64,000 bases of DNA from Escherichia coli O157:H7 str. 2011EL-2287 (GTDB lineage: Bacteria; Pseudomonadota; Gammaproteobacteria; Enterobacterales; Enterobacteriaceae): the NCBI GenBank assembly GCA_000614405.2, contig GCA_000614405.2_3612.1, one strand, 5' to 3'. Below the pieces are notes generated by a model. That model ran no database searches. It was not told the DNA's origin and was given only the letters and a program-made list of their open reading frames with translations. Below, piece after piece: positions 36,560 to 59,102 of this stretch (its first letter is position 1; every line of letters starts with the position of its first letter). The translations under genes were made by a program, and so were the position numbers.

Positions 36560-36835
36560 AAATAACATTGTGGCTTCATAGAGTAATCTATGTCGAATAA
36601 CCTCTTTAACTGCGGGAAGCCTAAACCTTATGGCAAGGTAATCCGCAACGAAGCGCTCAAAAGAGCGAACGCTCAGAGGCCATTCCGAAAGGAAGTAGAC
36701 CAGCAAGTGCGGTCGAAATGGGAGGATTCCTGTGGTTGCTTATCATAGGAATATGAGATGGTCCGATCCTACGTGAAAACGTATGGCTATGCACGTAATG
36801 GTGCGGGGTAGCTTAACGACCTACCTGAACTATTG
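36560..36835 (+). ncRNA. group I self-splicing intron (no ORF) in DNA polymerase gene
   Basis: Inserted between His and Asp-Glu of motif C; follows exon U, ends with G; GUGG guide near 5' end pairs with exon CCAU; core elements AACUGCGGGAAG, AAUCCGCAAC, GUAGACCAGC, GAGAUGGUCC. Confidence 0.7.
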
Positions 36836-44819: not shown

Positions 44820-45145
44820 CAGAGATCATCATTTCAACTGCAGGGTATGTGTTCCTGACAATCATTGCACTGACCATTCTGGTGGTGGTATATGGAATTG
44901 TTATTCTCCCTATTCTTGAGACAATTAGTTTGTGTCGGTGTTGGAGAAAGGCTTACGGTCCACAGCCGTGGAAGGACTGGCCCCACCTGGTGCACATAGC
45001 GTTCTCTTATGCTTATGATCACGCCAGCAGTGCATGCATAACCGGGTATCACGCCCACAACTGGAGCTGGGAAGGGTTGAGGAAATGGAATGTTACAAAG
45101 ACCATACCTCTGCGCATGTACAAACCTAAAAACAAAGACAGCTGA
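44816..45145 (+). CDS. membrane protein
   Basis: N-terminal hydrophobic helix FLTIIALTILVVVYGIVILPIL; ATGA overlap. Confidence 0.4.
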   Translation: MTEIIISTAGYVFLTIIALTILVVVYGIVILPILETISLCRCWRKAYGPQPWKDWPHLVHIAFSYAYDHASSACITGYHAHNWSWEGLRKWNVTKTIPLRMYKPKNKDS

Positions 45146-45454
45146 TACTTGAAAATTCCTGGCATATCAAGTATAAGGGGGATTTCTAAAATGGATTTCC
45201 TCCTTTTGATATTTCACCGGGCCGGATATTTTAAAATTCTTAGAAAATCAGAAAATGGATCGAAAACTAAAATGGATTTTTCAGAGTAGGCGCGACAAGC
45301 TGAATAACTCATCCTATCGTTTGCACCATATTCCAGACCACCATTATAGATTTCCCGCACATGCTTACATCTCGCTACTAGAACTTCCTCCACTTACCCT
45401 TGACCTTTTATAGCAATAATCCAACCACTATCTTGAAGTTGCGGTGCAGCTTTC

Positions 45455-45620
45455 CAGGTACTCGATCTGTTTTTCGTTTCAAAGATTGAATTTTCTGAAA
45501 ATTTTTCTCGATAAATTTCTCAGTACTCGATCTGTTTTTCGTTTTCTGAATCGGATTTTCTGGAAATCGCTCCGGCTCTTGGCCTAAACTTTTTGGGGAC
45601 GAAATCGATTTTTCGTTTTC
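45455..45620. repeat. direct repeats (CAGGTACTCGATCTGTTTTTCGTTT x2 plus related CGAAATCGATTTTTCGTTTTC)
   Basis: Near-identical 25-bp copies at 45455 and 45521; related copy at 45600; AT-rich non-coding context. Confidence 0.5.
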
Positions 45621-45747
45621 AGAAATGGATTTTTAAAATTTCTATATGGGAATATTTTAGTGGATACTATTTTATAGGAAATTGTTACGGAGGGTAATTA
45701 GCGTGCTAATTAAATTTATTAAATGCGAGGAGTTCTCATTTAGAATT

Positions 45748-45766
45748 TTGAATGATAATCATTCTC
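45748..45766. promoter_or_regulatory. Fur-box-like operator (copy 1)
   Basis: TTGAATGATAATCATTCTC matches the Fur consensus GATAATGATAATCATTATC at 15/19. Confidence 0.45.
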
Positions 45767-45780
45767 GTTTGCAGAATAAC

Positions 45781-45821
45781 GGGCAGGCCCGGTGATTGTC
45801 TCCCGGCCCCTACTGCCCCGG
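45781..45821 (+). repeat. GC-rich structured element (copy 1)
   Basis: GGCAGGCCCGGTGATTGTCTCCC core shared with 45921 and, inverted, 54594. Confidence 0.5.
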
Positions 45822-45883
45822 CTTGTTATTATAGTAACACACAGGACAAAGAAAGCAAGAAGTTTTTGCATAAATTTTTAGAC

Positions 45884-45902
45884 GATAATGATAATCGTTC
45901 TC
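45884..45902. promoter_or_regulatory. Fur-box-like operator (copy 2)
   Basis: GATAATGATAATCGTTCTC matches Fur consensus at 17/19; overlaps a GATAAT -10-like hexamer with TTGCAT 18 nt upstream. Confidence 0.5.
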
Positions 45903-45920
45903 ATTTCATGCAGCGCCCAT

Positions 45921-45957
45921 CCCCGGTGGTTGTCTCCCCCGTCACCGGTGCCTGCCG
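45921..45957 (+). repeat. GC-rich structured element (copy 2)
   Basis: CCGGTGGTTGTCTCCCCCGTCACCGGTGCCTGCCG; internal inverted repeat CCGGTG/CACCGG. Confidence 0.5.
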
Positions 45958-46164
45958 TCCTTTCGATAGGTATATTTTGCCACCTGGCGGGGCCGCTGTC
46001 AACACTTTTCAAAAAAAAAAATTTCTAACCTGATGCGCTGACCGCTGCAACCTGGCGGGGCCAGCCTGGCAGGGCCTAACTGACCAGGTAGGAGAGAATG
46101 AAGGCTTGCAAACCTGGTGGGCCTATGCTATAGGATAGGTAACAATTGAAGAGGAGGTACAAAA

Positions 46165-46341
46165 ATGGAAGGTAATATGATCCCCCTGGAAAATGTAGCT
46201 ATTAATGACGCTGAGGCTATCGCCCTGGTTGAAAAGGCTATGGCGGGAGCGTTGGAACATAAAGAAGAGTACGAAAAAATGATGGTTAACCTGGCAGGGG
46301 CGGCGGCTGGAGAATTCTACCCAAAAAATAATTTTAACTAA
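46165..46341 (+). CDS. small hypothetical protein (58 aa)
   Basis: Below ORF-track threshold; strong RBS GAGGAGG before ATG. Confidence 0.45.
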   Translation: MEGNMIPLENVAINDAEAIALVEKAMAGALEHKEEYEKMMVNLAGAAAGEFYPKNNFN

Positions 46342-46344
46342 TGG

Positions 46345-46373
46345 TTGACAGCTCGGACAGTTCTTGTTATTCT
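46345..46373 (+). promoter_or_regulatory. sigma70-like promoter
   Basis: TTGACA-N17-TATTCT upstream of 46429 gene. Confidence 0.5.
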
Positions 46374-46428
46374 TATCCTCGCAAGGTGAACAACACCACA
46401 CCAATTAACAGAGAGGATAAAAAAAATC

Positions 46429-46626
46429 ATGAACGCCTACGGAATTAAAGTACGTCGCAACACTCGCCAGGTGGTCACCAATCAAGTGATTTGCCGGGTG
46501 GATGTAACCATCAACAACGGGCAAGGCCTTTATAAATTTCGTCGCGGTCATAGCTATACCCTGCAACAGCTTAACCGTTGCGCCCTGACAAAAGGTCAGA
46601 TCAACCACTGGTTTAATAAAAAATAA
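46429..46626 (+). CDS. hypothetical small basic protein
   Basis: RBS AGAGGA; own promoter. Confidence 0.45.
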   Translation: MNAYGIKVRRNTRQVVTNQVICRVDVTINNGQGLYKFRRGHSYTLQQLNRCALTKGQINHWFNKK

Positions 46627-46628
46627 TG

Positions 46629-46657
46629 TTGACATATGGTCTGACACAAAATACACT
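46629..46657 (+). promoter_or_regulatory. sigma70-like promoter
   Basis: TTGACA-N17-TACACT upstream of 46690 gene. Confidence 0.5.
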
Positions 46658-46689
46658 GAAATCGCAAAAGACACTAAGAGGATAAAATC

Positions 46690-47088
46690 ATGAAAACCAC
46701 TACCTTTAATTTTGATAATGCGGACTTTTCTTTTTCTGATGTCAAGAACTGCCGCCGTGATCGTGGATTTTACAAGGCTTATAATCTGGTGGGCCTGGAC
46801 GATGACAATAATTTGCACGAAGTAGCTGAGATCCGGTATTATGCCGCCGCCAGTGGTAACACTCACTACTGCGTGTTTTGGATTCACGACAACAAGAACA
46901 ATAAGTACGGTTATACTGGCGGCAAGGCGAGCGGTCACGGTTACGATAAAGCTAACGCAGCACTTGAGAGTGCATTAAATGCTATGGGGATCACTGCCGA
47001 CGGCTGGATCTACGAAGAAGAGTTTTTGTCGGCACTTGCTGACCACCTGGGCTATAAAAAGCACATTGTGACATGCGCCCACGAATAA
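46690..47088 (+). CDS. hypothetical protein
   Basis: RBS AAGAGGA; own promoter. Confidence 0.5.
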   Translation: MKTTTFNFDNADFSFSDVKNCRRDRGFYKAYNLVGLDDDNNLHEVAEIRYYAAASGNTHYCVFWIHDNKNNKYGYTGGKASGHGYDKANAALESALNAMGITADGWIYEEEFLSALADHLGYKKHIVTCAHE

Positions 47089-47102
47089 AAATCATTGACA
47101 CG

Positions 47103-47130
47103 CTGCAAAATTTAAGTAAACTAGACACAA
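47103..47130 (+). promoter_or_regulatory. sigma70-like promoter
   Basis: TTGACA-N16-TAAACT then leader hairpin GGCGGGAA-TGT-TTCCCGCC. Confidence 0.5.
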
Positions 47131-47170
47131 AAGGCGGGAATGTTTCCCGCCAGCACAAAGGAAAAAGATC

Positions 47171-47575
47171 ATGAATAAGAACGTACGCCGCATCATGAAC
47201 GAACTGGCAAACGATGAAAAAATTATTGACATGCACTTAGTGAACATTTGCCGCCGTTGTGTAACCTATAACAACCGCGCCGCAAAAGCGCGTGAGATGA
47301 ACGCAAAAGGCACCTTAAAGCCCTTCCAGGTGGTGGTAAAGGCCATTAAAGATGTAGCTAATACGGCAAACCAGGTACAGGGGAACACCAACGAGAGTAC
47401 CAATATTGATCCGGCTTACATCATGAAACGGATCCGGACCTGCAAGAACAAAGAGCAAGTGTATAACGTCATAGACTGGTTGGATTCCATGGGCGACGTG
47501 GTTTATAATAGGTTTTCTGCAGCCATTGAGATCCAGCTAGACAGGTTGGACGGGAAAGTACTAAAAACTTATTGA
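47171..47575 (+). CDS. hypothetical protein
   Basis: RBS AAAGGAAAAAG; own promoter and leader hairpin. Confidence 0.5.
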   Translation: MNKNVRRIMNELANDEKIIDMHLVNICRRCVTYNNRAAKAREMNAKGTLKPFQVVVKAIKDVANTANQVQGNTNESTNIDPAYIMKRIRTCKNKEQVYNVIDWLDSMGDVVYNRFSAAIEIQLDRLDGKVLKTY

Positions 47576-47576
47576 G

Positions 47577-47623
47577 TTTATTTTTAGATGGCCTTGACTC
47601 CAGGGCCATCGATAAAGTAAACT
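47577..47623 (+). repeat. promoter-stem-loop repeat (PeSL-like) copy 1
   Basis: TTTATTTTTAGATGGCCTTGACTCCAGGGCCATCGATAAAGTAAACT; hairpin GATGGCC/GGCCATC with TTGACT in loop. Confidence 0.55.
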
Positions 47624-47655
47624 AATCTCAGTTAAGCGAAAAAGGGGGCTTTAAG

Positions 47656-47775
47656 ATGGGCACTACACGCCAATACACAAAGGTAACTATTATCGTCTGC
47701 GTTGTCGGTTACATCCTGGCGCAAATGTTAATGAGTAGCGCTAACAGTTTTGCAAAATTTTTCTTAAATTTTTAA
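47656..47775 (+). CDS. hydrophobic micro-protein (39 aa)
   Basis: Below ORF-track threshold; RBS AAAGGGGG; central hydrophobic stretch VTIIVCVVGYILAQML. Confidence 0.35.
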   Translation: MGTTRQYTKVTIIVCVVGYILAQMLMSSANSFAKFFLNF

Positions 47776-47803
47776 TTGACAAGCTAACTTAGATCGGTAT
47801 ACT
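47776..47803 (+). promoter_or_regulatory. sigma70-like promoter
   Basis: TTGACA-N16-TATACT; leader hairpin GGGAA-AAC-TTCCC. Confidence 0.5.
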
Positions 47804-47854
47804 TAAACCCGTAAACGGGAAAACTTCCCAGAACACACAAAAGGAGAAAACACC

Positions 47855-48196
47855 ATGACCACTATGACCGCCGCAGAAAAAGCTATTCAGGTTGCCGCAC
47901 TGAAAAAACAGATCGCAGACCTTGAGAACAAGATCGATACCTTTGAAATCGACGAGGACAAGTACGACGAAAACTATGATGAATGGTTAGACGAGATCTA
48001 CGGAGAAATCATGATCGGAAACATTTCTTTTCTTCCGTCGCGTATCCTCAAGGAGCTAGATCCTATCGCTTACCGCTGCGGATTTAGCGACTACATCGAC
48101 AGCCTGGATATTGAGGACGATGAAGAATACCAGGAATTACAGACAGAGTTAGAAGAAGCAAAAGAAGAGCTTGCGGAGCTGGAAGAAAACGAGTAA
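47855..48196 (+). CDS. hypothetical acidic protein
   Basis: RBS AAGGAGAAAA; Glu/Asp-rich C-terminal half. Confidence 0.5.
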   Translation: MTTMTAAEKAIQVAALKKQIADLENKIDTFEIDEDKYDENYDEWLDEIYGEIMIGNISFLPSRILKELDPIAYRCGFSDYIDSLDIEDDEEYQELQTELEEAKEELAELEENE

Positions 48197-48198
48197 GA

Positions 48199-48244
48199 TT
48201 ATTTTTAGATGGCCTTGACTCCAGGGCCATCAATAAAGTAAACT
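48199..48244 (+). repeat. promoter-stem-loop repeat (PeSL-like) copy 2
   Basis: Near-identical to 47577 element (single G/A difference). Confidence 0.55.
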
Positions 48245-48285
48245 TTATACTGTTAACACTGAACTAATGCATAGGAGTTAAAACC

Positions 48286-48531
48286 ATGGCAGCACTAATC
48301 ACCAAATATTATGCCCCTACCAACACCAAAAGCGCCCGTATCATGGTAAAAGGCTTCGGACGTAAAAAGGTTTACACCTGGGATTATGCCTTAGACACGG
48401 AAGACAACTACACCAACGCGATGACAGATTTTATTAATGAGCTGAACACGCGGATCTTGACAAATTATAAAATTACCGATATTGCCTATATAGGGGAAGG
48501 CGGGATCTGTTTTGTCGGTATCGTCAAATAA
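48286..48531 (+). CDS. hypothetical protein
   Basis: RBS TAGGAG. Confidence 0.45.
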   Translation: MAALITKYYAPTNTKSARIMVKGFGRKKVYTWDYALDTEDNYTNAMTDFINELNTRILTNYKITDIAYIGEGGICFVGIVK

Positions 48532-48532
48532 G

Positions 48533-48580
48533 CTGTTTTTTCGGTGGTCCTGGTAGCAGGGCCATCTATAAAGATAGTTT
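48533..48580 (+). repeat. degenerate promoter-stem-loop-like element
   Basis: GGTCCTGGTAGCAGGGCCATCTATAAAG shares GGGCCATC-ATAAAG core with PeSL-like repeats. Confidence 0.3.
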
Positions 48581-48606
48581 ATCAACACAATGAAAGGAGA
48601 AAGTAC

Positions 48607-48960
48607 ATGATCAGCGGGGCAAGTTTTATTATTGGCGCTATTGCTACGGCTTTAATTGTAAACAAGATCCAATCTAAAAACGAAAAAGAGAGCAACGCGC
48701 TCACAGAATACCCATTTTGGGTATTCAACGACAATGAAGACTACATTATCAAGTACAAGAATGAGAAGGGCGACCAGGTAACACCGCGACCGATCCCGGC
48801 TTACAAGATGCAAGAAACACTATACCGCCTAAAGGCTGGAGGCGCAAAAATCGTAGACTTTTGGGGATATGATTGCAAGGATCAGGAGGTTATAAAGCGC
48901 CGTATCCGGGCTATTCAGGCCAATATTGAAGTTAGCAAGGGGGGAATATATGAAGATTAA
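48607..48960 (+). CDS. membrane protein
   Basis: ATG after AAAGGAGAAAG RBS; N-terminal helix ISGASFIIGAIATALIV (ORF track start 48544). Confidence 0.45.
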   Translation: MISGASFIIGAIATALIVNKIQSKNEKESNALTEYPFWVFNDNEDYIIKYKNEKGDQVTPRPIPAYKMQETLYRLKAGGAKIVDFWGYDCKDQEVIKRRIRAIQANIEVSKGGIYED

Positions 48961-49147
48961 TTTTGAGAAGATTGTAAAGCGATCTCATGATTCCGAAGAG
49001 CTGCCGGAACGACGCCAGCGTAACAATAAACTGAATAAGCCGAAAAGATTTGGGAAGATCTGGCGAAATCACTATGATCGCAAATTACCCAGCCTGCTTT
49101 TGGAACGTGAACGACAAGCGGAACGATACCGCCACAAAGACAAATAG
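48950..49147 (+). CDS. small basic protein
   Basis: ATG after AGGGGGGAATAT; Arg/Lys-rich; overlaps upstream gene end. Confidence 0.35.
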   Translation: MKINFEKIVKRSHDSEELPERRQRNNKLNKPKRFGKIWRNHYDRKLPSLLLERERQAERYRHKDK

Positions 49148-49154
49148 CAACCAA

Positions 49155-49184
49155 CGCCCCGCCATTGTGCGGGGTTTTTTATTT
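49155..49184 (+). terminator. rho-independent terminator
   Basis: Hairpin CCCCGC-CATTGT-GCGGGG + TTTTTT. Confidence 0.6.
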
Positions 49185-49328
49185 CTATCCTACGAATAGC
49201 GCCCCTGGTTGGCCCCACAAACGCCACAAAAGCCCCTACCTATGCAATCCCCTTTATTAACCTGAAAACATCACCCAGGGCCGTTTTATGGTGTTAAAAA
49301 ATATCATTGACAGTGATTTTATTTAAAG

Positions 49329-49357
49329 CTTGACACCTTGGAATAGTCCGGATATAC
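49329..49357 (+). promoter_or_regulatory. sigma70-like promoter
   Basis: TTGACA-N17-TATACT upstream of 49394 gene. Confidence 0.5.
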
Positions 49358-49393
49358 TAACCACATCAAAGCAAGAAGGAAGGAGTAAACGCC

Positions 49394-49654
49394 ATGCGTA
49401 AATTAAAAAATTTTGATAAAGTTGATGTTGTCCTGAATAATTTTTACTACTGCAATAACAAGGCCATTTGGTGGCGTGATAGTTCCACCGATAAAGTCAA
49501 GGCGCGCTTTCTCCAGGGGCACTGGCAAGGCCGTCCAGTGATTAAAATCATGGGGCAATTGGTAGCGTTTAAAAATTGCCGCCGTGTTGATGACGTTGAA
49601 GAGATTTTAAGCATTTTGCGCCACAATAATTTAAAAAATAGTGTTGACAAGTAA
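49394..49654 (+). CDS. hypothetical protein
   Basis: RBS AAGGAAGGAG. Confidence 0.45.
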   Translation: MRKLKNFDKVDVVLNNFYYCNNKAIWWRDSSTDKVKARFLQGHWQGRPVIKIMGQLVAFKNCRRVDDVEEILSILRHNNLKNSVDK

Positions 49655-49671
49655 ATCTCGATAAGTATACT
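49644..49671 (+). promoter_or_regulatory. sigma70-like promoter
   Basis: TTGACA-N16-TATACT; leader hairpin GGCGGGAA-AAC-TTCCCGCC. Confidence 0.5.
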
Positions 49672-49728
49672 TAAACACACAGGCGGGAAAACTTCCCGCC
49701 ACTAACAAAGAAAATAGGAGAAAATATC

Positions 49729-50352
49729 ATGACCACCGTTAACATTACCACAGGTTACAATTTATCTTTCGACGTGCTGACCGATGAACAAAAAGAAAAA
49801 GCTATTGAAATGGTCCGCGAAAGAGAAGAACACAGCGGGGATAACTTTTTTGCAGAAAGTGTAATTGAAGACTATAAAGAACATATCTTTCCAGAGTATG
49901 GCCTTGAAGATACCAAGGTACATTGGTCCGGCTTTTGGTGCCAGGGCGACGGCGCGTCAATCAGTGCGGAAAACGTGGATTTAGAAAAATTCTTGCGTAA
50001 AGTCAAGTCTCTGACTAAATTCCGCTCAATTCGTCACTTGTTCGGCACAATGCACGATGGCGAGCTATCCGCAAGTGTTGAGCGTGATCCATATAGCCGC
50101 TATAGTCACGAAAATACTGTGAGCGGGTACATCGATACTACATGGCTAGACCTGACAGCCAAGCAAGAAAGTAAGGTTGAAGAGCTGGAAGAGTTGATCA
50201 CCGAGAACGTACGGGAACTATCCCGCAAGGTTTACGTAGACCTGGAGCAAGCTTATCTTGAACAATTTACTACCGAAAACCTGATCGGCCTTATCGAGGC
50301 CAATGATTGGCGGTTTGATGTGGATGAATATGGAGAGATGAGTTTTTCATAA
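49729..50352 (+). CDS. hypothetical protein
   Basis: 207-aa ORF, RBS TAGGAGAAAA. Confidence 0.5.
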   Translation: MTTVNITTGYNLSFDVLTDEQKEKAIEMVREREEHSGDNFFAESVIEDYKEHIFPEYGLEDTKVHWSGFWCQGDGASISAENVDLEKFLRKVKSLTKFRSIRHLFGTMHDGELSASVERDPYSRYSHENTVSGYIDTTWLDLTAKQESKVEELEELITENVRELSRKVYVDLEQAYLEQFTTENLIGLIEANDWRFDVDEYGEMSFS

Positions 50353-50360
50353 ATAAAGTG

Positions 50361-50388
50361 TTGCAATAATCTAAAAACCTGCTATATT
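50361..50388 (+). promoter_or_regulatory. sigma70-like promoter
   Basis: TTGCAA-N16-TATATT; leader hairpin GGGGCAA-GACG-TTTGCCCC. Confidence 0.45.
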
Positions 50389-50442
50389 AAAACTCAAGGG
50401 GCAAGACGTTTGCCCCCCACACAAAACAAAGAGGAAAACATC

Positions 50443-50823
50443 ATGAAAAACACTACTAAAGCTATTGACACCGTCATGTTTAACCTGGTTACCTTTCGCG
50501 AGGATATGAAAGATCTTCCACGTGAAACAGTGTGCGATCACATTGAAAACTATCGCAAACTAATCAAAGAGTTGCCTTTAAAACGTGATCAGTATGCGGC
50601 TAACGCCATGCTTAATGCCATGATCAAAAAGATGATCCAGTGTGATTTAACTCTGGCCTATGACTATGCGGGTGGTCGTTTTGCAGTATACAATCAGCCC
50701 GTGCCCGGTATGGGCACCACCGAAGAATTGCACGCGTTAAATCTGAAGCAAGATGTATGGGATAACATGCCCCGCGTGGTGGTGTGGGCAGAAAGCGGAA
50801 AGATTTACGGCGATAATTTTTAA
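50443..50823 (+). CDS. hypothetical protein
   Basis: ATG after AAAGAGGAAAACATC leader (ORF track start 50410 lies within the leader hairpin). Confidence 0.45.
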   Translation: MKNTTKAIDTVMFNLVTFREDMKDLPRETVCDHIENYRKLIKELPLKRDQYAANAMLNAMIKKMIQCDLTLAYDYAGGRFAVYNQPVPGMGTTEELHALNLKQDVWDNMPRVVVWAESGKIYGDNF

Positions 50824-50832
50824 TCAGGTAAC

Positions 50833-50860
50833 AGGCGGCATATTTGCCGCCTTATTGTTA
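50833..50860 (+). terminator. putative terminator hairpin
   Basis: AGGCGGCA-TATT-TGCCGCCT followed by TATTGTT. Confidence 0.45.
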
Positions 50861-50887
50861 AACAGAGTTGCAAAAGAGGTACATAGA

Positions 50888-51259
50888 ATGGAATTTATTA
50901 TTTTGGCTGTAGTAGTTGCCTTGTTCAACGCCTGGATAGCTGGCAAAATAGGTAGATCCGCTTTTCTATGGTTTGTTATATCTATTTTCCTGGGAGTGGT
51001 TGCAACCATTGTACTAGTTATCCTTGCAATTGTTGACAAGGATAATAATAAGAAGGGTAAAGTATTTTCCGACCTGTATGACGCCCAAACTTTTGTTAAC
51101 GCCTATTATAGTGATCTTCCGGTCTCCTTGCGCTGCAGCCTGGCGCAACAAGTTTTTGATGAGGCTAAAACCAGAGATCAAGCCCATGAGATATGTTTAA
51201 CTGAGGCGGATCGCCTATTTGAGAGGAATAGAAAATATGTGGGCCAGCCGTTTAAATAA
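50888..51259 (+). CDS. membrane protein
   Basis: ATG after AAAAGAGG; two predicted TM helices (ORF track start 50753). Confidence 0.45.
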   Translation: MEFIILAVVVALFNAWIAGKIGRSAFLWFVISIFLGVVATIVLVILAIVDKDNNKKGKVFSDLYDAQTFVNAYYSDLPVSLRCSLAQQVFDEAKTRDQAHEICLTEADRLFERNRKYVGQPFK

Positions 51260-51482
51260 TACCACGTTAATTAATCCCTTTAATGAAGATTTGAAGCCAG
51301 CCGCCTGGCGTGATGGATTCAATAACGAACGCTTTATTTTCAGGCCTGATCTTGAGGAATTTTATAACAATGGATCGAACAACGACAGAGATAATTTTTC
51401 TTGTGATGTGCGTGGTGATGGTACTCCTGGGGGACATTGTAAACCACGTCACTACTACCAGGAGGAAAGGGGGAGACGATGA
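51237..51482 (+). CDS. hypothetical protein
   Basis: ATG after AGAGGAATAG; overlaps 3' end of upstream gene; start uncertain. Confidence 0.3.
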   Translation: MWASRLNNTTLINPFNEDLKPAAWRDGFNNERFIFRPDLEEFYNNGSNNDRDNFSCDVRGDGTPGGHCKPRHYYQEERGRR

Positions 51483-51598
51483 CAACCAAGGATAAGCCCC
51501 GCACCGATAAGGTGCGCCAGGTTATGGTATGGCTTGAGATCATCGCCCTTGAAATATTGTTAGGGGTAGGAATGTACTTTATTGCTATAAGTAACTGA
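51479..51598 (+). CDS. hydrophobic micro-protein (39 aa)
   Basis: Below ORF-track threshold; ATGA overlap; RBS GAAAGGGGGAG; TM segment WLEIIALEILLGVGMYFIAI. Confidence 0.35.
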   Translation: MTTKDKPRTDKVRQVMVWLEIIALEILLGVGMYFIAISN

Positions 51599-51602
51599 TA
51601 AC

Positions 51603-51631
51603 GCCCCCGATCATGGGGGCTTAACTTTTTC
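51603..51631 (+). terminator. rho-independent terminator
   Basis: Hairpin GCCCCC-GATCAT-GGGGGC + TTAACTTTTT. Confidence 0.5.
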
Positions 51632-51653
51632 AAAAAATTTTTCTTCCAGGGTG

Positions 51654-51681
51654 TTGCAATCTGGTCCGCAATATGGATAAT
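51654..51681 (+). promoter_or_regulatory. sigma70-like promoter
   Basis: TTGCAA-N17-GATAAT; leader hairpin GGGGA-AACA-TCCCC. Confidence 0.4.
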
Positions 51682-51737
51682 AACAATCAACGGGGAAACA
51701 TCCCCACCAACACAAAAACCAGAAAGGAGAAACAAAA

Positions 51738-51938
51738 ATGAGCAACAATATCCGCGTTATTAACTTCAAAAAAGAAGAAAAAATTGCCGTGCTGATTGAC
51801 GGTCAAGAAATCTTCAAGGGCGACTATGAAGATCATCAAACGGCGATTAGTATCACTCGCGTGATTGGTTACCATAATTTTTACCCCCAAGGCGCTGAGG
51901 CGGCGGTTAAACGAATCAAAGAGATTGTAGGCCTGTAA
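51738..51938 (+). CDS. hypothetical protein
   Basis: RBS AAAGGAGAAA. Confidence 0.45.
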   Translation: MSNNIRVINFKKEEKIAVLIDGQEIFKGDYEDHQTAISITRVIGYHNFYPQGAEAAVKRIKEIVGL

Positions 51939-51939
51939 A

Positions 51940-51985
51940 ATTTATTTTTAGATGGCCTTGACTCTAGGGCCATCAATAAAGTAAA
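51940..51985 (+). repeat. promoter-stem-loop repeat (PeSL-like) copy 3
   Basis: TTTATTTTTAGATGGCCTTGACTCTAGGGCCATCAATAAAGTAAAT; near-identical to copies at 47577 and 48199. Confidence 0.55.
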
Positions 51986-52031
51986 TTTAAACCCTGTTAA
52001 AATACCACGCAGTTAACAAGGAGTGATAGAC

Positions 52032-52331
52032 ATGTTTATCCAGGCTAATAATCTTTATTTCTTTGATGGTCAGATCGTAGATGGTGTGGAAGTGGAGATC
52101 ACTGGGTGCCCTGGTGGTCAGGCTATGACTTTTCGGAATAATGCCTTTGATGATTCTCATATCGTTATGAGAATGGAAGTTACAAAGCTGGACGACAAGA
52201 AAACGCTCATTGACTATTCCGTGAAAGATCATCCAGACTACCACATGATCTATGGTGATTTGTGCATTGTTGACCGTGACAAGGTGGGCGGCATTGTGAT
52301 CGCTATTGTGAACGATGTTTTCTCTGTATAG
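52032..52331 (+). CDS. hypothetical protein
   Basis: ATG after AAGGAG (ORF track start 52023). Confidence 0.45.
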   Translation: MFIQANNLYFFDGQIVDGVEVEITGCPGGQAMTFRNNAFDDSHIVMRMEVTKLDDKKTLIDYSVKDHPDYHMIYGDLCIVDRDKVGGIVIAIVNDVFSV

Positions 52332-52389
52332 TTCCGGCAAATGATGCAAAATAAGGCCCCTAGCAGGGCCTGCAGCGATATAATCACAT

Positions 52390-52425
52390 AAAGGCCATGC
52401 GGTTGCATGGCCTTTATTATTTTGG
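52390..52425 (+). terminator. rho-independent terminator
   Basis: 10-bp stem AAGGCCATGC-GGTT-GCATGGCCTT + TATTATTTT. Confidence 0.65.
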
Positions 52426-52471
52426 CGTTACAACGGCCTCCAAGGCGCTTAAAAATTTTTTAAAGAAGTAC

Positions 52472-52500
52472 TTGCATCAAGCCCTACAATATGGATAATA
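52472..52500 (+). promoter_or_regulatory. sigma70-like promoter
   Basis: TTGCAT-N17-GATAAT; leader hairpin GGGGGC/GCCCCC. Confidence 0.4.
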
Positions 52501-52552
52501 GTACGTGTCAGGGGGCGGCCCCCAATCATTAACAGAAACAGGAGTTAAAACT

Positions 52553-52837
52553 ATGGCTATTGTTACCGCTGGCGATGTAGTAGAAATGGAAGCAAAATAC
52601 TTAAAAGCGGGTATGCATATCCTGCGCAACGATCTTGAACTGGTCTTGACAATGGTTGACTATAACCCAGGGCAAGATTATCCAAGTGTTGACTACTTTT
52701 TTGAGTATGTTGATGAAGAGTTGAAAGAGGATGAGGCCTATTGCGGTGAGTTCTGCAACTTCTTTTGTCCTGATGAGGTTGTAAAGGTTATCTATCAACC
52801 TGGCGTAGCTTTCCCGCTGCACGCTATCAATAAATAA
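52553..52837 (+). CDS. hypothetical protein
   Basis: ATG after ACAGGAG (ORF track start 52505). Confidence 0.45.
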   Translation: MAIVTAGDVVEMEAKYLKAGMHILRNDLELVLTMVDYNPGQDYPSVDYFFEYVDEELKEDEAYCGEFCNFFCPDEVVKVIYQPGVAFPLHAINK

Positions 52838-52899
52838 ACCTGGCGGGGCCGAAAAGGCCTCCGCCTGAAATTATGAAAAATAAAAAGAGGCAAACTATC

Positions 52900-53130
52900 A
52901 TGATGGAACAAATTAAACGCGCTGAGGCTATTAATGGCAATGTGATCTATTTTGTCAGCAATAACGAAAAAGGCGTACCATATGCGGCGGTAATAGTACA
53001 GCCTGACGGCGATTATTGGTTTACTGTGTACGGCGCTTACTCTTTTGGGCGTCCAGTGCATGATAAAATTTTGAAAGTAGCGAACCCTACCGGGAAGAAT
53101 ATCACAGCAGAAAAATTTTTTGAAAAATAG
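52900..53130 (+). CDS. hypothetical protein
   Basis: ATG after AAAAGAGG (ORF track start 52873). Confidence 0.45.
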   Translation: MMEQIKRAEAINGNVIYFVSNNEKGVPYAAVIVQPDGDYWFTVYGAYSFGRPVHDKILKVANPTGKNITAEKFFEK

Positions 53131-53158
53131 TTGACATGGCCTTATAAGACTGTAGAAT
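53131..53158 (+). promoter_or_regulatory. sigma70-like promoter
   Basis: TTGACA-N16-TAGAAT; leader hairpin GGGGGC-AACAA-GCCCC. Confidence 0.5.
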
Positions 53159-53210
53159 ATAAATCAAAGGGGGCAACAAGCCCCACCAACCACAAAGAGG
53201 ATAAAAAATC

Positions 53211-53390
53211 ATGGCTATTATTGCAAAGACTGAGATCGTAGGCTTAGATTCTATTCTCCTCGCATATGAGGAAGCTATAGAAATGTATGTGGTTTCCTAT
53301 GGTGAATATATCCGTGAATATAAATCTATTGATCTGGCTTTTGAATGTTATATTCGCCAGGTTAATAAAGCGTACGATGATTATCGTTAA
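53211..53390 (+). CDS. small hypothetical protein (59 aa)
   Basis: Below ORF-track threshold; RBS AAAGAGGATAAAAAATC. Confidence 0.35.
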   Translation: MAIIAKTEIVGLDSILLAYEEAIEMYVVSYGEYIREYKSIDLAFECYIRQVNKAYDDYR

Positions 53391-53480
53391 AATAGCTTGA
53401 CAACAAACAACCATCTAACAAAGCATAATACATAAGGCGGTGGAATGGTCCGCCACCTGGAACAAGAAGAGGAAAACAAG

Positions 53481-53585
53481 ATGAAACAGAAATTAATTGA
53501 TGCGGTGATCCTGGTTATTGCCCTGGGTATTGGCCTGATTGCAACCATGTCTAATATGATCTTGTCTTCCAACGGTATCGGGTGA
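53481..53585 (+). CDS. hydrophobic micro-protein (34 aa)
   Basis: RBS AAGAGGAAAA; single TM-like segment AVILVIALGIGLIATM. Confidence 0.35.
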   Translation: MKQKLIDAVILVIALGIGLIATMSNMILSSNGIG

Positions 53586-53594
53586 GGTTGGCAA

Positions 53595-53810
53595 ATGATC
53601 ACTAACAAAACAGGCAAAACAGAATTTTTACGCAACTTACAGATCGGCAAGCCTGAGATCTGGTATTGCACTAAAACACCACGTGACGAAATGAAAGACT
53701 TCACCGCCACGCTGCAACGGGTAAAGATATCCATCACGCAGAAAAAGGCCTTATTAGTGGTGGAAGGTGAGATCCCCCAAACCGTTGTTATAGTTGAGCG
53801 TACAGCATAG
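53595..53810 (+). CDS. hypothetical protein
   Basis: ORF with RBS GGTGAGG. Confidence 0.4.
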   Translation: MITNKTGKTEFLRNLQIGKPEIWYCTKTPRDEMKDFTATLQRVKISITQKKALLVVEGEIPQTVVIVERTA

Positions 53811-53901
53811 TTTAATTTATACCGATACCCGAAAATTAACCAACAAAGCATAAACAGGCGGTTACCGCCGCCTTAAACGTAGCAGAAAGAGGATAGACAC
53901 A

Positions 53902-54186
53902 ATGAAAAAGATGATCGCAGCGGTTGCCCTGGTTGTTGGACTTAATGCGCCTGTAATGGCTAAAGAGCTGGCAAAAGAGGTTAATCTAACGGATATTCAT
54001 GCCGTCAATCAAATCGGGGTTACTTATCGCTTATGCCTTGCCGCTAAAACTTTCCAGGACGGCACGACAGAGTACTACGGATTCGAGGGTATCCGGTGCG
54101 GTGAGCTTGCTCGCGACCTTAAGGAAGATCCAGACCTGGAAGATCTGCCCATCACCGTAAACGGTAAAGCTTACGTAAACCGTTAA
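53902..54186 (+). CDS. secreted small protein
   Basis: Signal-peptide-like N-terminus MKKMIAAVALVVGLNAPVMA; RBS AAAGAGGA. Confidence 0.45.
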   Translation: MKKMIAAVALVVGLNAPVMAKELAKEVNLTDIHAVNQIGVTYRLCLAAKTFQDGTTEYYGFEGIRCGELARDLKEDPDLEDLPITVNGKAYVNR

Positions 54187-54188
54187 CC

Positions 54189-54323
54189 ATGAGAAAGATA
54201 ATCATCACCTTGGGGATTGTGGCGGGATCGCTGGCGCTCTTTCCCATTATGGTTAGGTATGTGCTGATCAGTATTGTCCTGGTAGTCAGTGATCTATTGG
54301 AAACGGTTGGCACCTTGTTTTAA
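54189..54323 (+). CDS. hydrophobic micro-protein (44 aa)
   Basis: Start overlaps upstream stop region; two hydrophobic stretches; weak RBS. Confidence 0.3.
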   Translation: MRKIIITLGIVAGSLALFPIMVRYVLISIVLVVSDLLETVGTLF

Positions 54324-54342
54324 AGAGCGATAAAAAAAAAAA

Positions 54343-54534
54343 ATGAATGTCGAACAAGTTAGAAAGGTATTGGCGGTACTGCGTTATCATAATCATAGAA
54401 AGGTCATAGACGATCCTGATTATGTCGATTCAAACCTGGAAGAGGATACACTACAAGCCATAAGTAACATGCAAGAATTGCTAAAGCGCATGACAGAGAA
54501 AAACCGACCGGACTACATAGGCGAAAAAATATAA
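54343..54534 (+). CDS. hypothetical protein
   Basis: ORF; weak RBS. Confidence 0.35.
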   Translation: MNVEQVRKVLAVLRYHNHRKVIDDPDYVDSNLEEDTLQAISNMQELLKRMTEKNRPDYIGEKI

Positions 54535-54550
54535 TATTTATAAACTACAA

Positions 54551-54580
54551 AACAGGGCTTGCAATGGTCCTGTTTTTTGT
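54551..54580 (+). terminator. rho-independent terminator
   Basis: Hairpin ACAGGGC-TTGCAATG-GTCCTGT + TTTTTT. Confidence 0.55.
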
Positions 54581-54593
54581 TATACTTATTCCA

Positions 54594-54640
54594 CGGCAGG
54601 CACCTGGCGACGGGGGAGACAATCACCGGGCCTGCCTGTC
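54594..54640 (-). repeat. GC-rich structured element (copy 3, inverted)
   Basis: Reverse complement GGCAGGCCCGGTGATTGTCTCCCCCGTCGCCAGGTGCCTGCCGT matches copy 1 (23 nt exact) and copy 2. Confidence 0.5.
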
Positions 54641-54661
54641 ATATAAGAACTATAAAAACCG

Positions 54662-54744: not shown

Positions 54745-55017
54745 ATGTCAAGCTGGATTAATCAAGAAGTCGAATCACGTTTTAATGCTATATGGGATCT
54801 CATCGAAAAAGAGGACGGAACATCAAGCCCCTACCTCAACAATTTGGAATTCCATTTTGTGGAAGCGATGAACGCAGAACATGATCACGAAGGTGGCGCA
54901 GATGAGTTCGCTAAAGGTTATGGCTTTAACAATGCCAACGAAATGATCGAGGCGGTAGTACTCCAGGCTGAGGAAGATTATCAATTAAAAACGCTTGAAT
55001 TCTGCCGCCGTAAGTAA
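54745..55017 (+). CDS. hypothetical protein
   Basis: RBS AGGAGAGAGG. Confidence 0.45.
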   Translation: MSSWINQEVESRFNAIWDLIEKEDGTSSPYLNNLEFHFVEAMNAEHDHEGGADEFAKGYGFNNANEMIEAVVLQAEEDYQLKTLEFCRRK

Positions 55018-56220: not shown

Positions 56221-56246
56221 AAGGGGCTTAGGCCCCTTTCTTTTTG
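56221..56246 (+). terminator. rho-independent terminator
   Basis: Hairpin AAGGGGC-TTAG-GCCCCTT + TCTTTTTG. Confidence 0.6.
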
Positions 56247-56854
56247 TCTGATCTTCCCCCTACCATAAACGGCCCTACCTGGCAAGTGGAATAATTGACG
56301 AGCCATCAACCCCACACACTGTACAAATATACATGGAAAATAACTATTGCATAATTTTTCATTGTGTGGTAGCAAGTCCATTTTTACCCGTTTTCTCTCC
56401 CAAAAGTGCACGTAATGCCGCTATTGCACAAATTTTAACCTGATGCACATCTCCAATATCTTGTCAACAACTAAAAATCTTTATAAGTCATACACTTACA
56501 CAGCATCGAAAGCGTGTTCTACGCGAAAAATCGAGTATAACTATAGCCGCCAGATCTCAGAATTCACGTACGCACGCCATTCTATAGCCTGCAAAGTATT
56601 TATTCCAACCACAGAATAACGGAATAGTCAATACCTGCATAAAATAATTATTCGTGTAAACTGCATAACATAAATCAGCTCAGGTGTCAACATTTTTCGT
56701 AAACAGTCCGAAATTATCACGATGAGTTATCATAAACAGAGAAATCTTTAGTCGTCTAATGTTTACTGTACATTACTATATTGACTGGAATCATTAGATG
56801 ACTAATAGAAAGATAAGAAATAATTAACAATACAATTATTTTATCTGTAACAAT

Positions 56855-57052
56855 AAGGCAACTATGCAAACGAATGGCATGGCGCGACGGAGTCGCGACA
56901 TAATATAAAAGCAGTAACCATCACCCCCGTGATAGTTTGTCTGCAATCTATTAATCAGATCATAGTTGCCTTGTATTTAGTTAATCATGACATAACAAGC
57001 AAGGCAACTATAGATCTGCTAATAGTTGCCCTGCTTTTATATTATGTCATAG
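56855..57052. repeat. nested palindromes / inverted iterons (AGGCAACTAT x4 alternating; 18-bp inverted repeat)
   Basis: AGGCAACTAT at 56856 and 57002, inverse at 56962 and 57023; GACATAATATAAAAGCAG (56893) inverted at 57031; GCAAACGAATGGCATGGC repeated at 56865 and 57127. Confidence 0.5.
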
Positions 57053-57157
57053 AAACACCCGAAGGGGTGACCAAAGGTCACCTGGCATAGCCAGTGAAAT
57101 ATTGTAAACAAGTTAATTATTGTCATGCAAACGAATGGCATGGCTTATCATCTCTGT

Positions 57158-57289
57158 GTAAACAGTTTGTTTGTAAACAGTTTATACGTGAACAGTTAAC
57201 TATGTAAACTATTGAGAATGTAAACAGTAAAGGAAGTGAATAGTAAGCGAGTGAATATTAATAGCGTGAATAGTGACAGCGTAAACAGT
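57158..57289 (+). repeat. iteron array: nine 9-bp direct repeats GT(A/G)AA(C/T)A(G/T)T at ~15-bp periodicity
   Basis: Copies start at 57158, 57173, 57188, 57205, 57220, 57236, 57251, 57266, 57281; non-coding context. Confidence 0.6.
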
Positions 57290-57873
57290 CAGGCATGTCA
57301 ATTAAGTCTAAAGTGTCAAAGGTGTCATATTATGTCACCATTATGTCAGACAAGTTTTTCTCCTCTTTGTCAAGTGCTGCATGAAAATTTACAATCTGGT
57401 ATGGTAGCATTTTTGCGGCCCTGTTTACATTCAGTTGTGTATGTATAAGCCTTGTTGTGTGGGCGTTTAGACGTCTAGACGGTTGGAAGTCTACAGGTCA
57501 ATATCTAATCTATTGGTTGCTAACTATATCCCACACAAATAGTAAGAAATATAATTGTTATGTGTGTAAACTGTAACTCATGTTATCAATCCCTGTATGG
57601 ATCGCCAGTGGTGCGCATAATGGGTATTATGTTAAATTGCCCGTAATGATAACAGTTCTCACAATGATAGGTATTCTCATTCACCCCACAAGATAGGTTG
57701 CAAATGTTGTGCCACTGTGTGAACGGCCTCACCTATTAATTTGCCTCACTGCCTCGATATTTGAGAATTATTATAAGAATGAGAAGTATTCCCATTCCGT
57801 CCGCCTGGCAGCACTCCTGTCGGTCAGGTCAAAATCGTGGTAGAATTGGGCCTATTCAGATATTTCTGGCTGA

Positions 57874-58068
57874 CTCTTCAGGTCTGTGTGGGAAAAGCCA
57901 ACCTCTCCGGCGGGGCAGGGGGAGGTCAATTAAAAAATTTACGTGGTGTATGAAGCGCTCTTCAGGTAAGGCAGGTATTATGGGATGAAACCCTCTTCAG
58001 GCAATGATATTTGTGGGTGTGATATTTGCTGGAAAGCCAGATATGACGGGACTCCCGGCGGGGCAGGG
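57874..58068 (+). repeat. direct repeats (CTCTTCAGG x3; CCGGCGGGGCAGGG x2)
   Basis: CTCTTCAGG at 57874, 57958, 57993; CCGGCGGGGCAGGG at 57907 and 58055. Confidence 0.4.
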
Positions 58069-58765
58069 GTAGTACAGACAGGGAAAATATGGGGATGTAG
58101 TTGGGTGAATTGATCGGGCAGGTAGAGTATGGAATATGTTACAAGTATGTTAAATATGGAGGTTGAATATCTGTAGGATTTGTGTGTAAAATCAAAGACT
58201 TAAGGGGTGTTGTGGTATTTTCTATAAATAATTCAAGTTTAATAGGCAATATTTGTCTCTATCCGCTTTGTGTGGTAAACAGATTCAGATTAGATTGGTT
58301 TACAAGTGTATACATAATATACAAATTAAAGATACAAGAAACCCCCCTCCCCCCTTCGGCTACCATTCACCTTTTCCTCTGACTGGTACTTAAACACTTA
58401 TTCAGACTCTTCAGGTTATCACCCATATATCATATGGCAGTGACTGGTGTCCTCCGGCCCCTCTTTCGTCACCCGTCCGCTTCGCCATGCTAATGCCATA
58501 GCTAATGGTTCGGTTGTTCACCCTGTTCACTCAGGTGTATCTCTATACCCCTTCAAACCGAAGAGAACAGAAAACCCGAATTACTCGGTAAAAGAAAAGA
58601 GAAGAACTTAATTTTATCAGGATAGGCAAGAATGTCAAGGCATGACTGCTCACTAAACAAGCAAACAGTCATGTGTGGGAGGTAAGTGATTGTGGTGGTA
58701 GGAAATTTAGTTGAAAGATGTGTTATAGGTGCTTCCAGCACTTTAGCCGGGCAGCTAATTGTGTG

Positions 58766-58981
58766 TCAGTCCAGCGGTTCATCCTCTACTTCACTGAAAT
58801 CAATGTTCATGGTCTCTTCCCAACCATCGATCTCAGCACAAGAGTGGAGTTCTTTAGGGTTTACTCCCAAAGCCTCAGCAACAGAGTCTATATTTAACAC
58901 CTCTGGCAGGTATGATTCATCGAATTCAAGGTAAATCAGGCCACGAGTGTTGTCAGCTCCACCAAATATTTCTATCTTCAT
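58766..58981 (-). CDS. small acidic protein
   Basis: ORF at 3' end of leftward cluster; Glu/Asp-rich. Confidence 0.4.
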   Translation of the reverse strand: MKIEIFGGADNTRGLIYLEFDESYLPEVLNIDSVAEALGVNPKELHSCAEIDGWEETMNIDFSEVEDEPLD

Positions 58982-59102
58982 AAAATCTCCTCTGGGAATG
59001 AAAGTGTGAACAGGGTTTTATACGTTCTAATGCACAGGAATTATACACGTTTGCCTCTTCAGGCCATGCTTTAGCATGAGGAACCTGTGTGGGCTCGGTG
59101 CT

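Follow-up and report, generated by a model that had tools for sequence, protein, structure and literature searches.

Background

Transcription-activated phage origins include the T7 primary origin and oriF and oriG of phage T4. In phage HK022, putL and putR are short transcribed elements (50-70 nucleotides, nt) that lie just past a host-type early promoter and need no linked protein gene (PMC9378689). The present analysis concerns a contig of 64,000 nt deposited with the assembly of Escherichia coli O157:H7 str. 2011EL-2287 (GCA_000614405.2_3612.1; hereafter the window) and, within it, a GC-rich element, designated E, of which two copies (E1 and E2) occur around 45.8 kb and a third (E3) occurs in opposite orientation at 54.6 kb. 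In the description of the coliphage rV5, this region falls in the long early transcription unit 10-1-238-164, neither an origin nor special elements being given for it, and the origin is unmapped (PMC3606486). E is apparently an undescribed conserved element, for which no Rfam family and no paper were found. With a probability of about one half, it may be a promoter-proximal transcribed leader or small RNA whose read-through is gated by Fur.

Identity of the window and anatomy of E

The 10 kb around E matched 237 phage records, about 70 of which were collinear over at least 80% of the query with 90-97% identity, all of them rV5-like coliphages (Vequintavirus). The window represents early-region DNA of an rV5-like coliphage. 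For rV5 and vB_EcoM_Gotham, the annotation lists here a series of small hypothetical genes, all on the same strand, and predicts sigma-70 promoters. About 20 GenBank records of the MG0656xx series, labelled 'Campylobacter phage' (host Campylobacter jejuni), share 93-99% identity with the present E. coli rV5-like phage in this region, and their host labels look doubtful.

The earlier note had drawn attention to GC-rich stretches at 45781 and 45921 that recur on the opposite strand at 54594-54640, and to a motif ACCTGGCGGGGCC at 45982, 46050 and 52838 with variants at 46064, 46112 and 54601. All GC-rich copies were retrieved, within 1-2 nt of these positions (Table 1), and the motif and its variants were found exactly where reported. 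The 16-mer CCGGTGATTGTCTCCC, allowing up to three mismatches, occurred at exactly three sites in the 64 kb against 0.26 expected, a count reached in none of 100 shuffles; likewise, the 13-mer ACCTGGCGGGGCC, allowing up to two mismatches, occurred at six sites against 0.64 expected (0/100 shuffles reaching six). A repeat search returned two pairs of inverted arms, 45776-45804 with 54614-54642 (29 nt, 93% complementary) and 45922-45946 with 54606-54630 (25 nt, 92% complementary). A phage genome holds just two to three copies of E, all at the 45.8-kb and 54.6-kb loci.

E is an imperfectly self-complementary, GC-rich stretch of about 50 nt around a core. In an alignment of 37 copies, this core was invariant as GAGACAAnCACC-N5-UGCCYG, usually followed by (C/U)(U/C)AU; the 5' half of E varies between lineages, yet it remains rich in GC and can pair in part with the 3' half. 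The strand reading GAGACAA is taken as the element's strand, namely the minus strand at 45.8 kb and the plus strand at 54.6 kb. E2 has a 5' arm of the type seen at the 54.6-kb locus, whereas its 3' arm has diverged, UGGGCG replacing UGCCYG. The third copy, which the earlier note called composite, literally combines the core-plus-UGCCYG half of the first copy with the other arm of the second. Its suggested origin as a recombination product found no support, since the full two-armed form is standard at the 54.6-kb-type locus in other genera, being found in Certrevirus, Phapecoctavirus and a Seunavirus-like phage. Moreover, E2 and its Fur box sit where relatives carry another conserved block (CTACCGGCGATCCACC...GGGGTGGCG), so that E2 rather than E3 is the derived copy.

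In relatives (L005:860-960, L007, L008, L009), a second conserved non-coding block, CTACCGGCGATCCACC...GCCCCGCCTTTTCGCCGTGGGGTGGCG, takes the place that E2 has in the window, from which this block is absent. By eye, it contains a long-range helix UACCGG/C(C/U)GGUA with G-U pairs on the plus strand only, and it had no match in Rfam.

A coding function of the E loci was rejected, as in several lineages a start codon or a ribosome site is missing from the open reading frames (ORFs) annotated there and as variation, read from the alignments, is not restricted to third positions.

Table 1. Features of the E loci and their surroundings in the window (promoters, Fur boxes and the terminator are predictions).
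Feature	Position	Strand	Remarks
Iteron-like array, five units	45144..45641		Three units of 52 nt at 65-74 nt spacing, two more at 81 nt
AT-rich stretch, 23-30% GC	45610..45759		Between repeat array and Fur box 1; 150 nt
Fur box 1, TTGAATGATAATCATTCTC	45748..45766		15/19 to E. coli consensus
E1, element copy 1	45776..45826	-	Fold -21.6 kcal/mol, z -1.3
E1 UGCCCG	reverse complement of 45780-45785	-	
GC-rich element, first stretch, GGGCAGGCCCGGTGATTGTCTCCC	starts 45781		
E1 core, GAGACAATCACC	reverse complement of 45791-45802	-	
E1 promoter	45828..45858	-	-10 TATAAT/TACTAT reverse complement around 45828-45836; TATAAT at 45833-45828
E1 promoter -35, TTGCTT	reverse complement of 45853-45858	-	
Fur box 2, GATAATGATAATCGTTCTC	45884..45902		17/19 to consensus; downstream of E2 in the element's direction
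E2, element copy 2	45910..45962	-	Fold -20.1 kcal/mol, z -2.25
GC-rich element, second stretch, CCGGTGGTTGTCTCCCCCGTCACCGGTGCCTGCCG	starts 45923		
E2 core, GAGACAACCACC	reverse complement of 45925-45936	-	
E2 promoter, TTGACA-17-CAAAAT with TG	45974..46002	-	Spacer holds ACCTGGCGGGGCC copy 1 (45982-45994) reversed
A11/T11 tract	46011..46021		UP-element-like tract upstream of E2 promoter; U-run after hairpin H on the minus strand
Hairpin H	46028..46089	-	Holds ACCTGGCGGGGCC copy 2 (46050-46062) and variant GCCTGGCAGGGCC (46064-46076)
Rightward promoter-like site, TTGCAA-17-TATAGG	46106..46134	+	By eye, below scan threshold
Intergenic hairpin	52838..52866		5' arm is ACCTGGCGGGGCC copy 3; -19.7 kcal/mol, z -3.7
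Intrinsic terminator of upstream gene	54549..54576	+	Loop carries -35 of E3 promoter; z -3.97
E3 promoter, TTGCAA-16-TATACT with TG	54559..54586	+	Conserved in other genera
E3, full-length element	54592..54642	+	Fold -24.4 kcal/mol, z -3.0
GC-rich element, reverse-complement copy	54595-54637		
E3 core, GAGACAATCACC; UGCCUG	54616-54627; 54633-54638	+	

Promoter coupling

A first property of E is its position behind a promoter. In all 33 distinct copies with enough flanking sequence, the best same-strand sigma-70-type promoter was found at a set distance, its -35 box containing TTG and its -10 box containing A2 and T6, often with TGn; 27-31 nt separate the end of the -10 box from the core (37 nt in E2). 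Promoter scores averaged 9.4 matches on the element's strand versus 7.7 for the best candidate on the other strand, where candidates were weaker and inconsistent between lineages. E begins approximately where a strong same-strand host-type (sigma-70) promoter would start transcription and, if the predicted promoters fire, would constitute the first 50 nt or so of the transcript. The -10 box of the E1 promoter is homologous in all genera. At 54.6 kb, the intrinsic terminator of the preceding gene lies upstream of E3. The element points right and leads the next early genes, and from the promoter geometry we infer that E3 may be the leader of a transcript running into the gene at 54745.

Conservation and arrangement of the two loci

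In the Vequintavirus records listed among the 237 matching ones, the 8.8-kb block between the loci is collinear, without inversion, clean excision or an empty site, partial coverage reflecting local gene replacements or record ends. The ten largest ORFs of the block matched only PHROGs of unknown function, gave no Pfam hit above threshold and included no recombinase or transposase; the flanks GCAGAATAAC and TGTCATATAA contained no direct repeat or target-site duplication. The two loci recur in at least three other genera, with the same inverted orientation and 8-10 kb between them, namely in Phapecoctavirus, in Certrevirus and in a Seunavirus-like phage. The intergenic stretch bearing E still aligns in Seunavirus, Certrevirus, Henunavirus, Mydovirus and Phapecoctavirus with 77-88% identity, and no other non-coding stretch is as well conserved between genera as the E region (84-88% identity), the flanking intergenic DNA no longer aligning.

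The earlier note had offered cassette ends as an explanation, to be abandoned if the elements proved unconserved in relatives. The elements are conserved, and this conservation shows function rather than mobility. If the copies bounded an 8.8-kb cassette able to move or invert, as its terminal inverted repeats or recombination sites, this would account for the inverted orientation around small accessory-type genes and for arms of 25-29 nt with 92-93% complementarity. However, the collinear block, the missing recombinase among its largest ORFs, the lack of a target duplication, the fixation of the same arrangement in several genera and the tie of every copy to its own promoter render this explanation extremely improbable. 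The feature is real and not ordinary, while its main interpretation in the earlier note is wrong.

Fur boxes

A second property of E is the frequent presence of Fur boxes behind it, as matched to the E. coli consensus, a 19-bp palindrome (GATAATGATAATCATTATC). Fur box 1 begins 13 nt past the 3' end of the E1 core motif (core through UGCCYG) in the element's direction; for sites of the class of Fur box 2 (at most three mismatches), 0.03 were expected in the window. Among 42 distinct copies of E, a match with at most five mismatches occurred within 120 nt downstream in 21, compared with 0.75% of random 120-nt windows. An upstream match occurred in just four of the 42, all of them E1 copies of rV5-type genomes (the window, rV5, Gotham and L129), in which the match found upstream is Fur box 2, next to E2. 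In relatives, between one and four palindromes of this kind (consensus AATGAGAATCATTCTCATT) occur at the 45-kb-type place. One to four Fur boxes are the usual continuation of E in enterobacterial phages; Certrevirus and two further relatives (SEW_6S and KP13-26) have Fur palindromes behind the 54.6-kb-type copy as well. The boxes lie at approximately +55 to +110 from the well-supported promoter, whereas the other-strand promoters that they would overlap are weak and not conserved. From these matches we infer that Fur may bind the boxes and may exert regulation there. The literature search on Fur boxes, small RNAs or transcript maps for the rV5-like group returned nothing relevant, and a link to Fur is, as far as found, apparently unreported for this phage group. 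The suggestion in the earlier note that the copies are binding sites for one regulator was right in so far as predicted regulator sites exist, these being the AT-rich Fur boxes adjoining the element; the GC-rich element itself is coupled to a promoter instead.

Two further observations concern sites near E. At the 54.6-kb-type locus of Phapecoctavirus (L094:530-580, L004, L148), E is followed by TTGATAG...CTATCAA, which are not Fur boxes, and by two further (C/T)ATCAAA repeats. A motif ATCTTTACAA recurs upstream of promoters in several genera.

Read in the opposite direction, the Fur boxes lie upstream of E. A Fur-repressed, RyhB- or PrrF-like small RNA could start in the boxes on that strand and end at the hairpin or terminator beyond, with GGUGnUUGUCUC, which presumably resembles the PrrF core (a lead only), as an anti-Shine-Dalgarno-like seed. 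Such an RNA would fit the 54.6-kb-type locus of the Seunavirus-like phage and Certrevirus, which runs into a bidirectional terminator, the neighbouring genes at the 45-kb locus and in PA5oct, which run in the same direction, and the inner helix, which pairs slightly better that way (52 versus 44 cells). On the other hand, the promoters of that strand are weak and lineage-variable (mean 7.7), with a variable position 2 in the -10 box, the distance between Fur box and core ranges from 3 to 45 nt, no Fur box is present in rV5-like 54.6-kb copies or in any non-enterobacterial member, and no Rfam match to RyhB or PrrF was obtained. This RNA is considered unlikely.

The 45-46 kb region

From about 45144 to 46160, a stretch of approximately 1 kb, no convincing gene was found. 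Two tandem units, each consisting of a promoter, E and a Fur box, point left toward AT-rich DNA and an iteron-like array. Read on the minus strand from the right, the order is hairpin H, U11, E2 promoter, E2, Fur box 2, E1 promoter, E1, Fur box 1, AT-rich stretch and repeats, the array being downstream of E1 in the element's direction. Direct repeats, AT-rich gene-free DNA and predicted promoters firing into it, as constituents of an origin-type anatomy, are all present. In its layout, the locus corresponds to a control region or to an origin activated by transcription, and it is the best current candidate for an origin or control hub in a group without a known origin. The rV5 ORF199 and ORF198 (window positions 45149-45413 and 45752-46033), annotated in other records too, cross the repeats, E and the Fur boxes; the ORFs annotated at these two places are probably not genes.

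This anatomy also bears on the possibility that E works as DNA, either as a protein-binding or strand-opening origin component or as another cis site, activated by the adjacent promoter. Apart from the gene-free kilobase with its five repeats, its DNA of 23-30% GC and its tandem promoters firing in, such a role would agree with the repeat arrays that follow E in four unrelated contigs and with a conservation that is mainly one of primary sequence, without strand asymmetry in pairing. The complement of the core contains 5'-GTC, which we take to be a T7-type primase site, and this is treated as a lead only. In addition, the genes of rV5 include those for a gp4-like primase-helicase of the T7 type and for a family A polymerase (PMC3606486). 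Nevertheless, the rV5-like 54.6-kb copy lacks repeats and is directly followed by genes, E precedes genes in L128, L186 and L287 too, no initiator gene is linked, and a double-stranded binding site does not need a co-varying complementary 5' arm. A DNA-level role is therefore possible but not favoured, and the same holds for the accompanying idea that Fur boxes and iterons serve as architectural or initiator sites.

The copies of ACCTGGCGGGGCC are not one class of site. Some lie in promoter spacers, including the variant ACCTGGTGGGCC (46112-46123) in the spacer of the rightward promoter-like site, upstream of the first gene of the cluster (46165), whereas others form arms of different hairpins. 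The copies in hairpin H belong to a structure that is far more stable on the minus strand (-32.3 kcal/mol, z -2.94) than on the plus strand (-24.4 kcal/mol, z +0.25). Copy 3 opens the intergenic hairpin, which starts 1 nt past a stop codon, and the variant at 54601 is part of the 5' arm of E3. In relatives, the string CCTGGCGGGG stands directly after TTGCA(T/A) -35 boxes. The motif gives the impression of a GC-rich unit used again and again in the modules of hairpin and promoter found in the early region.

A separate family consists of four 49-nt hairpins (z -7.1; window positions 47575-47623, 48196-48244, 48531-48579 and 51939-51987), the loop of which carries a -35-like TTGACT, with a -10-like TAAACT following 18 nt later. 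They share the design of the E3 promoter, with a -35 box inside a hairpin loop. Two 'Campylobacter phage' assemblies begin exactly at window position 47575.

Occurrence of E in other phages and databases

A scan of IMG/VR with a pattern that fixed the core gave 58 hits, about the number expected by chance. Five of these were non-coding and had a promoter in front (L108, L112, L128, L143 and L114). L143 is identical to an Erwinia phage copy at 27 of 29 positions over the core region, and L114 carries four Fur boxes followed by three 50-nt repeats. Iteron arrays follow E in L108, L112 and L143, as does the repeat array in L114. A metagenome scan was saturated by one coding-sequence coincidence; the six useful contigs that remained (L181, L186, L203, L253, L287 and L259) carry E with a consensus-like promoter 23-42 nt upstream. 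By BLAST with E3, PA5oct-like Pseudomonas jumbo phages were found to contain TTGCAT-17-TATTAT, the core and then a Fur-like palindrome; the four non-coding RNAs given in the RNA-seq paper on PA5oct are all at coordinates other than those of E. The next downstream gene is co-directional in L128, L186, L287 and at the 54.6-kb locus of the window, and no downstream protein family shared across the E-bearing contigs was found.

Searches of 5,426 complete genomes of E. coli and of the plasmids in PLSDB returned no copy of E. In Rfam, the window gave, at gathering scores, only a group I intron elsewhere and no match to E; the region searched at E-values up to 10 and five relatives searched at E-values up to 5 gave nothing relevant.

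Core halves spaced by N3 to N7 were tried in IMG/VR and set aside, the hits being mostly chance-like or coding; L158/L168, which share UGCCCGCUAU, provide one possible member with N3 spacing. In L203 (positions 1249-1380 of a 215-kb metagenome contig), a pair of E-type cores, separated by about 40 nt, converges on the palindrome GCATCCTATAATTTATAGGATGC, unlike the divergent loci, 8.8 kb apart, of the window.

Secondary structure and proposed mechanism

Stable folds were obtained for several copies of E, with z-scores of -3.0 for E3, -3.3 for CR3, -2.6 for L139 and -2.25 for E2. The outer helix of the 45-kb type is paired in 82.6% of cells, with two pairs showing compensatory changes; its covariation score of 0.176 compares with 0.117 for shuffles (2/500 reaching it) and 0.05-0.13 for slid controls (none reaching it). 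In L259, three pairs read directly are replaced by compensatory changes. As a whole, the evidence for a structured RNA is mixed. What can be said most safely is that constraint falls chiefly on the core as primary sequence, while the hairpin surrounding it is kept up loosely.

Hairpins as such are abundant in the region, which has 26 terminator-like sites against 10.6 expected. The copies of E might hence be ordinary GC-rich hairpins (terminators, insulators or RNase III sites) alike by shared ancestry only, given also that other families such as the four 49-nt hairpins exist and that copies of ACCTGGCGGGGCC are hairpin arms. Yet most copies of E have no U-run after them on either strand, none appeared in the terminator scan, the invariant part is the unpaired core instead of the stem, and E is conserved with its promoter across subfamilies and up to Pseudomonas jumbo phages, all of which makes this explanation quite improbable. 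Candidates compared by eye with consensus sequences, and rejected because key positions did not fit, were a sigma-54 promoter and a sigma-70 promoter within E, sites for DnaA, IHF and CRP, boxA, ops, mimics of clustered regularly interspaced short palindromic repeats, type I restriction sites and HUH nick sites.

The transcribed leader or small RNA proposed above would act as follows. Early in infection, host RNA polymerase would fire from the E promoters, and E, contained in the first 50 nt or so of the RNA, would serve either as a leader signal close to the promoter or as the main part of a small RNA. The core would act in the nascent RNA or in opened DNA, where it may bind a conserved host or phage factor, modify or pause the polymerase, or protect the 5' end. 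Iron-loaded Fur bound just downstream would then decide between stopping and reading on. At 54.6 kb in relatives, read-through would lead into early genes; at 45 kb, transcription would continue into the repeats and the AT-rich DNA and could there switch on an origin-like site. More tentatively, and with the odds against it, E may be an undescribed regulatory element that is widespread among large virulent phages, ranging from rV5-like ones to jumbo phages of the PA5oct type, and that acts close to the promoter; together with the Fur boxes behind it, it would couple early transcription, and possibly origin firing, to host iron status.

Several points weigh against a Fur-gated leader or small RNA. 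Firstly, the argument for transcription of E is promoter geometry. Secondly, the 45-kb element points at no gene, so that a simple leader or antitermination role fails for this copy, and the rV5-like 54.6-kb copy has no Fur box. Thirdly, RNAalifold returned no consensus structure for 23 diverse or for 14 related (45-kb-type) sequences, for roughly half of the lineages the fold is no more stable than that of shuffles, and L230, a metagenomic Vequintavirus, joins arms that pair poorly. Fourthly, neither strand is preferred, be it by folding energy (strand X better in 20 of 37), by an unbiased ungapped search for arm pairing (7.06 versus 7.03) or by counts of mismatches and of wobble pairs (90 versus 90 wobble pairs in the outer helix); because pairing and energy show no strand preference, a DNA-level site or transcription from the opposite strand has to be kept among the explanations. 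Lastly, most pattern matches in IMG/VR are due to chance, and the unrelated members came from a pattern that fixed the core, their membership resting on promoter and context.

The rV5-like, phi92-like and PVP-SE1-like phages are widely used as candidates for therapy and biocontrol, and yet the annotation of their early regions consists of one hypothetical gene after another, with ORFs called across E in some records. A promoter-core unit common to unrelated large phages points to a shared interaction with the host machinery at the start of infection. Since E is regularly paired with Fur boxes, these virulent phages may read host iron status, a capacity that would be relevant both in the gut, where iron is limited, and in infected tissue; if true, this would be the first virulent phage to wire its early programme to Fur.

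Other features of the window

A group I intron (RF00028; 64.7 bits, E-value 4e-14) was found at window positions 36550-36785 on the plus strand, directly after an ORF of 809 amino acids (34136-36565). From 56240 to 59100, after a terminator at 56221-56238, about 3 kb are without convincing genes; this stretch contains two tandem arrays of 15-nt units (57158-57209 and 57236-57282) and six (A/G)TGTCA repeats at approximately 57296-57350. A homologue of the annotated 459-bp terminal repeat of Gotham is located at about 57349-57805, so that the physical genome end is probably inside the window.

Comparison with known systems

Four known systems resemble the E loci in part. The put sites of HK022 and E both occur as two related copies per genome, in opposite orientation and just downstream of a host-type promoter, which is a predicted one in the case of E. 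However, put sites form two defined stem-loops and stand before two early operons, whereas E has no conserved two-stem structure and one of its loci is without a gene; the put-type fold of two stem-loops in about 70 nt was not found in E, which forms a single irregular hairpin with mixed z-scores. The nut sites of phage lambda are promoter-distal leader signals that likewise occur in two orientations in one genome, although they consist of boxA and boxB, and E, read directly against the consensus sequences, displays neither boxA nor a boxB-type hairpin. Fur-repressed promoters and small RNAs such as RyhB and PrrF share with E the near-consensus 19-bp Fur boxes adjoining a short non-coding unit; in Fur-repressed promoters the boxes lie over the promoter, whereas those of E lie downstream of a well-supported promoter and the carrier is a virulent phage. 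Finally, the T7 primary origin and oriF and oriG of T4 resemble the 45-kb locus in that tandem promoters, in the present case predicted ones, fire into AT-rich, repeat-bearing and gene-free DNA, while these origins possess no counterpart of the conserved GC-rich core and the second locus of E is without repeats.

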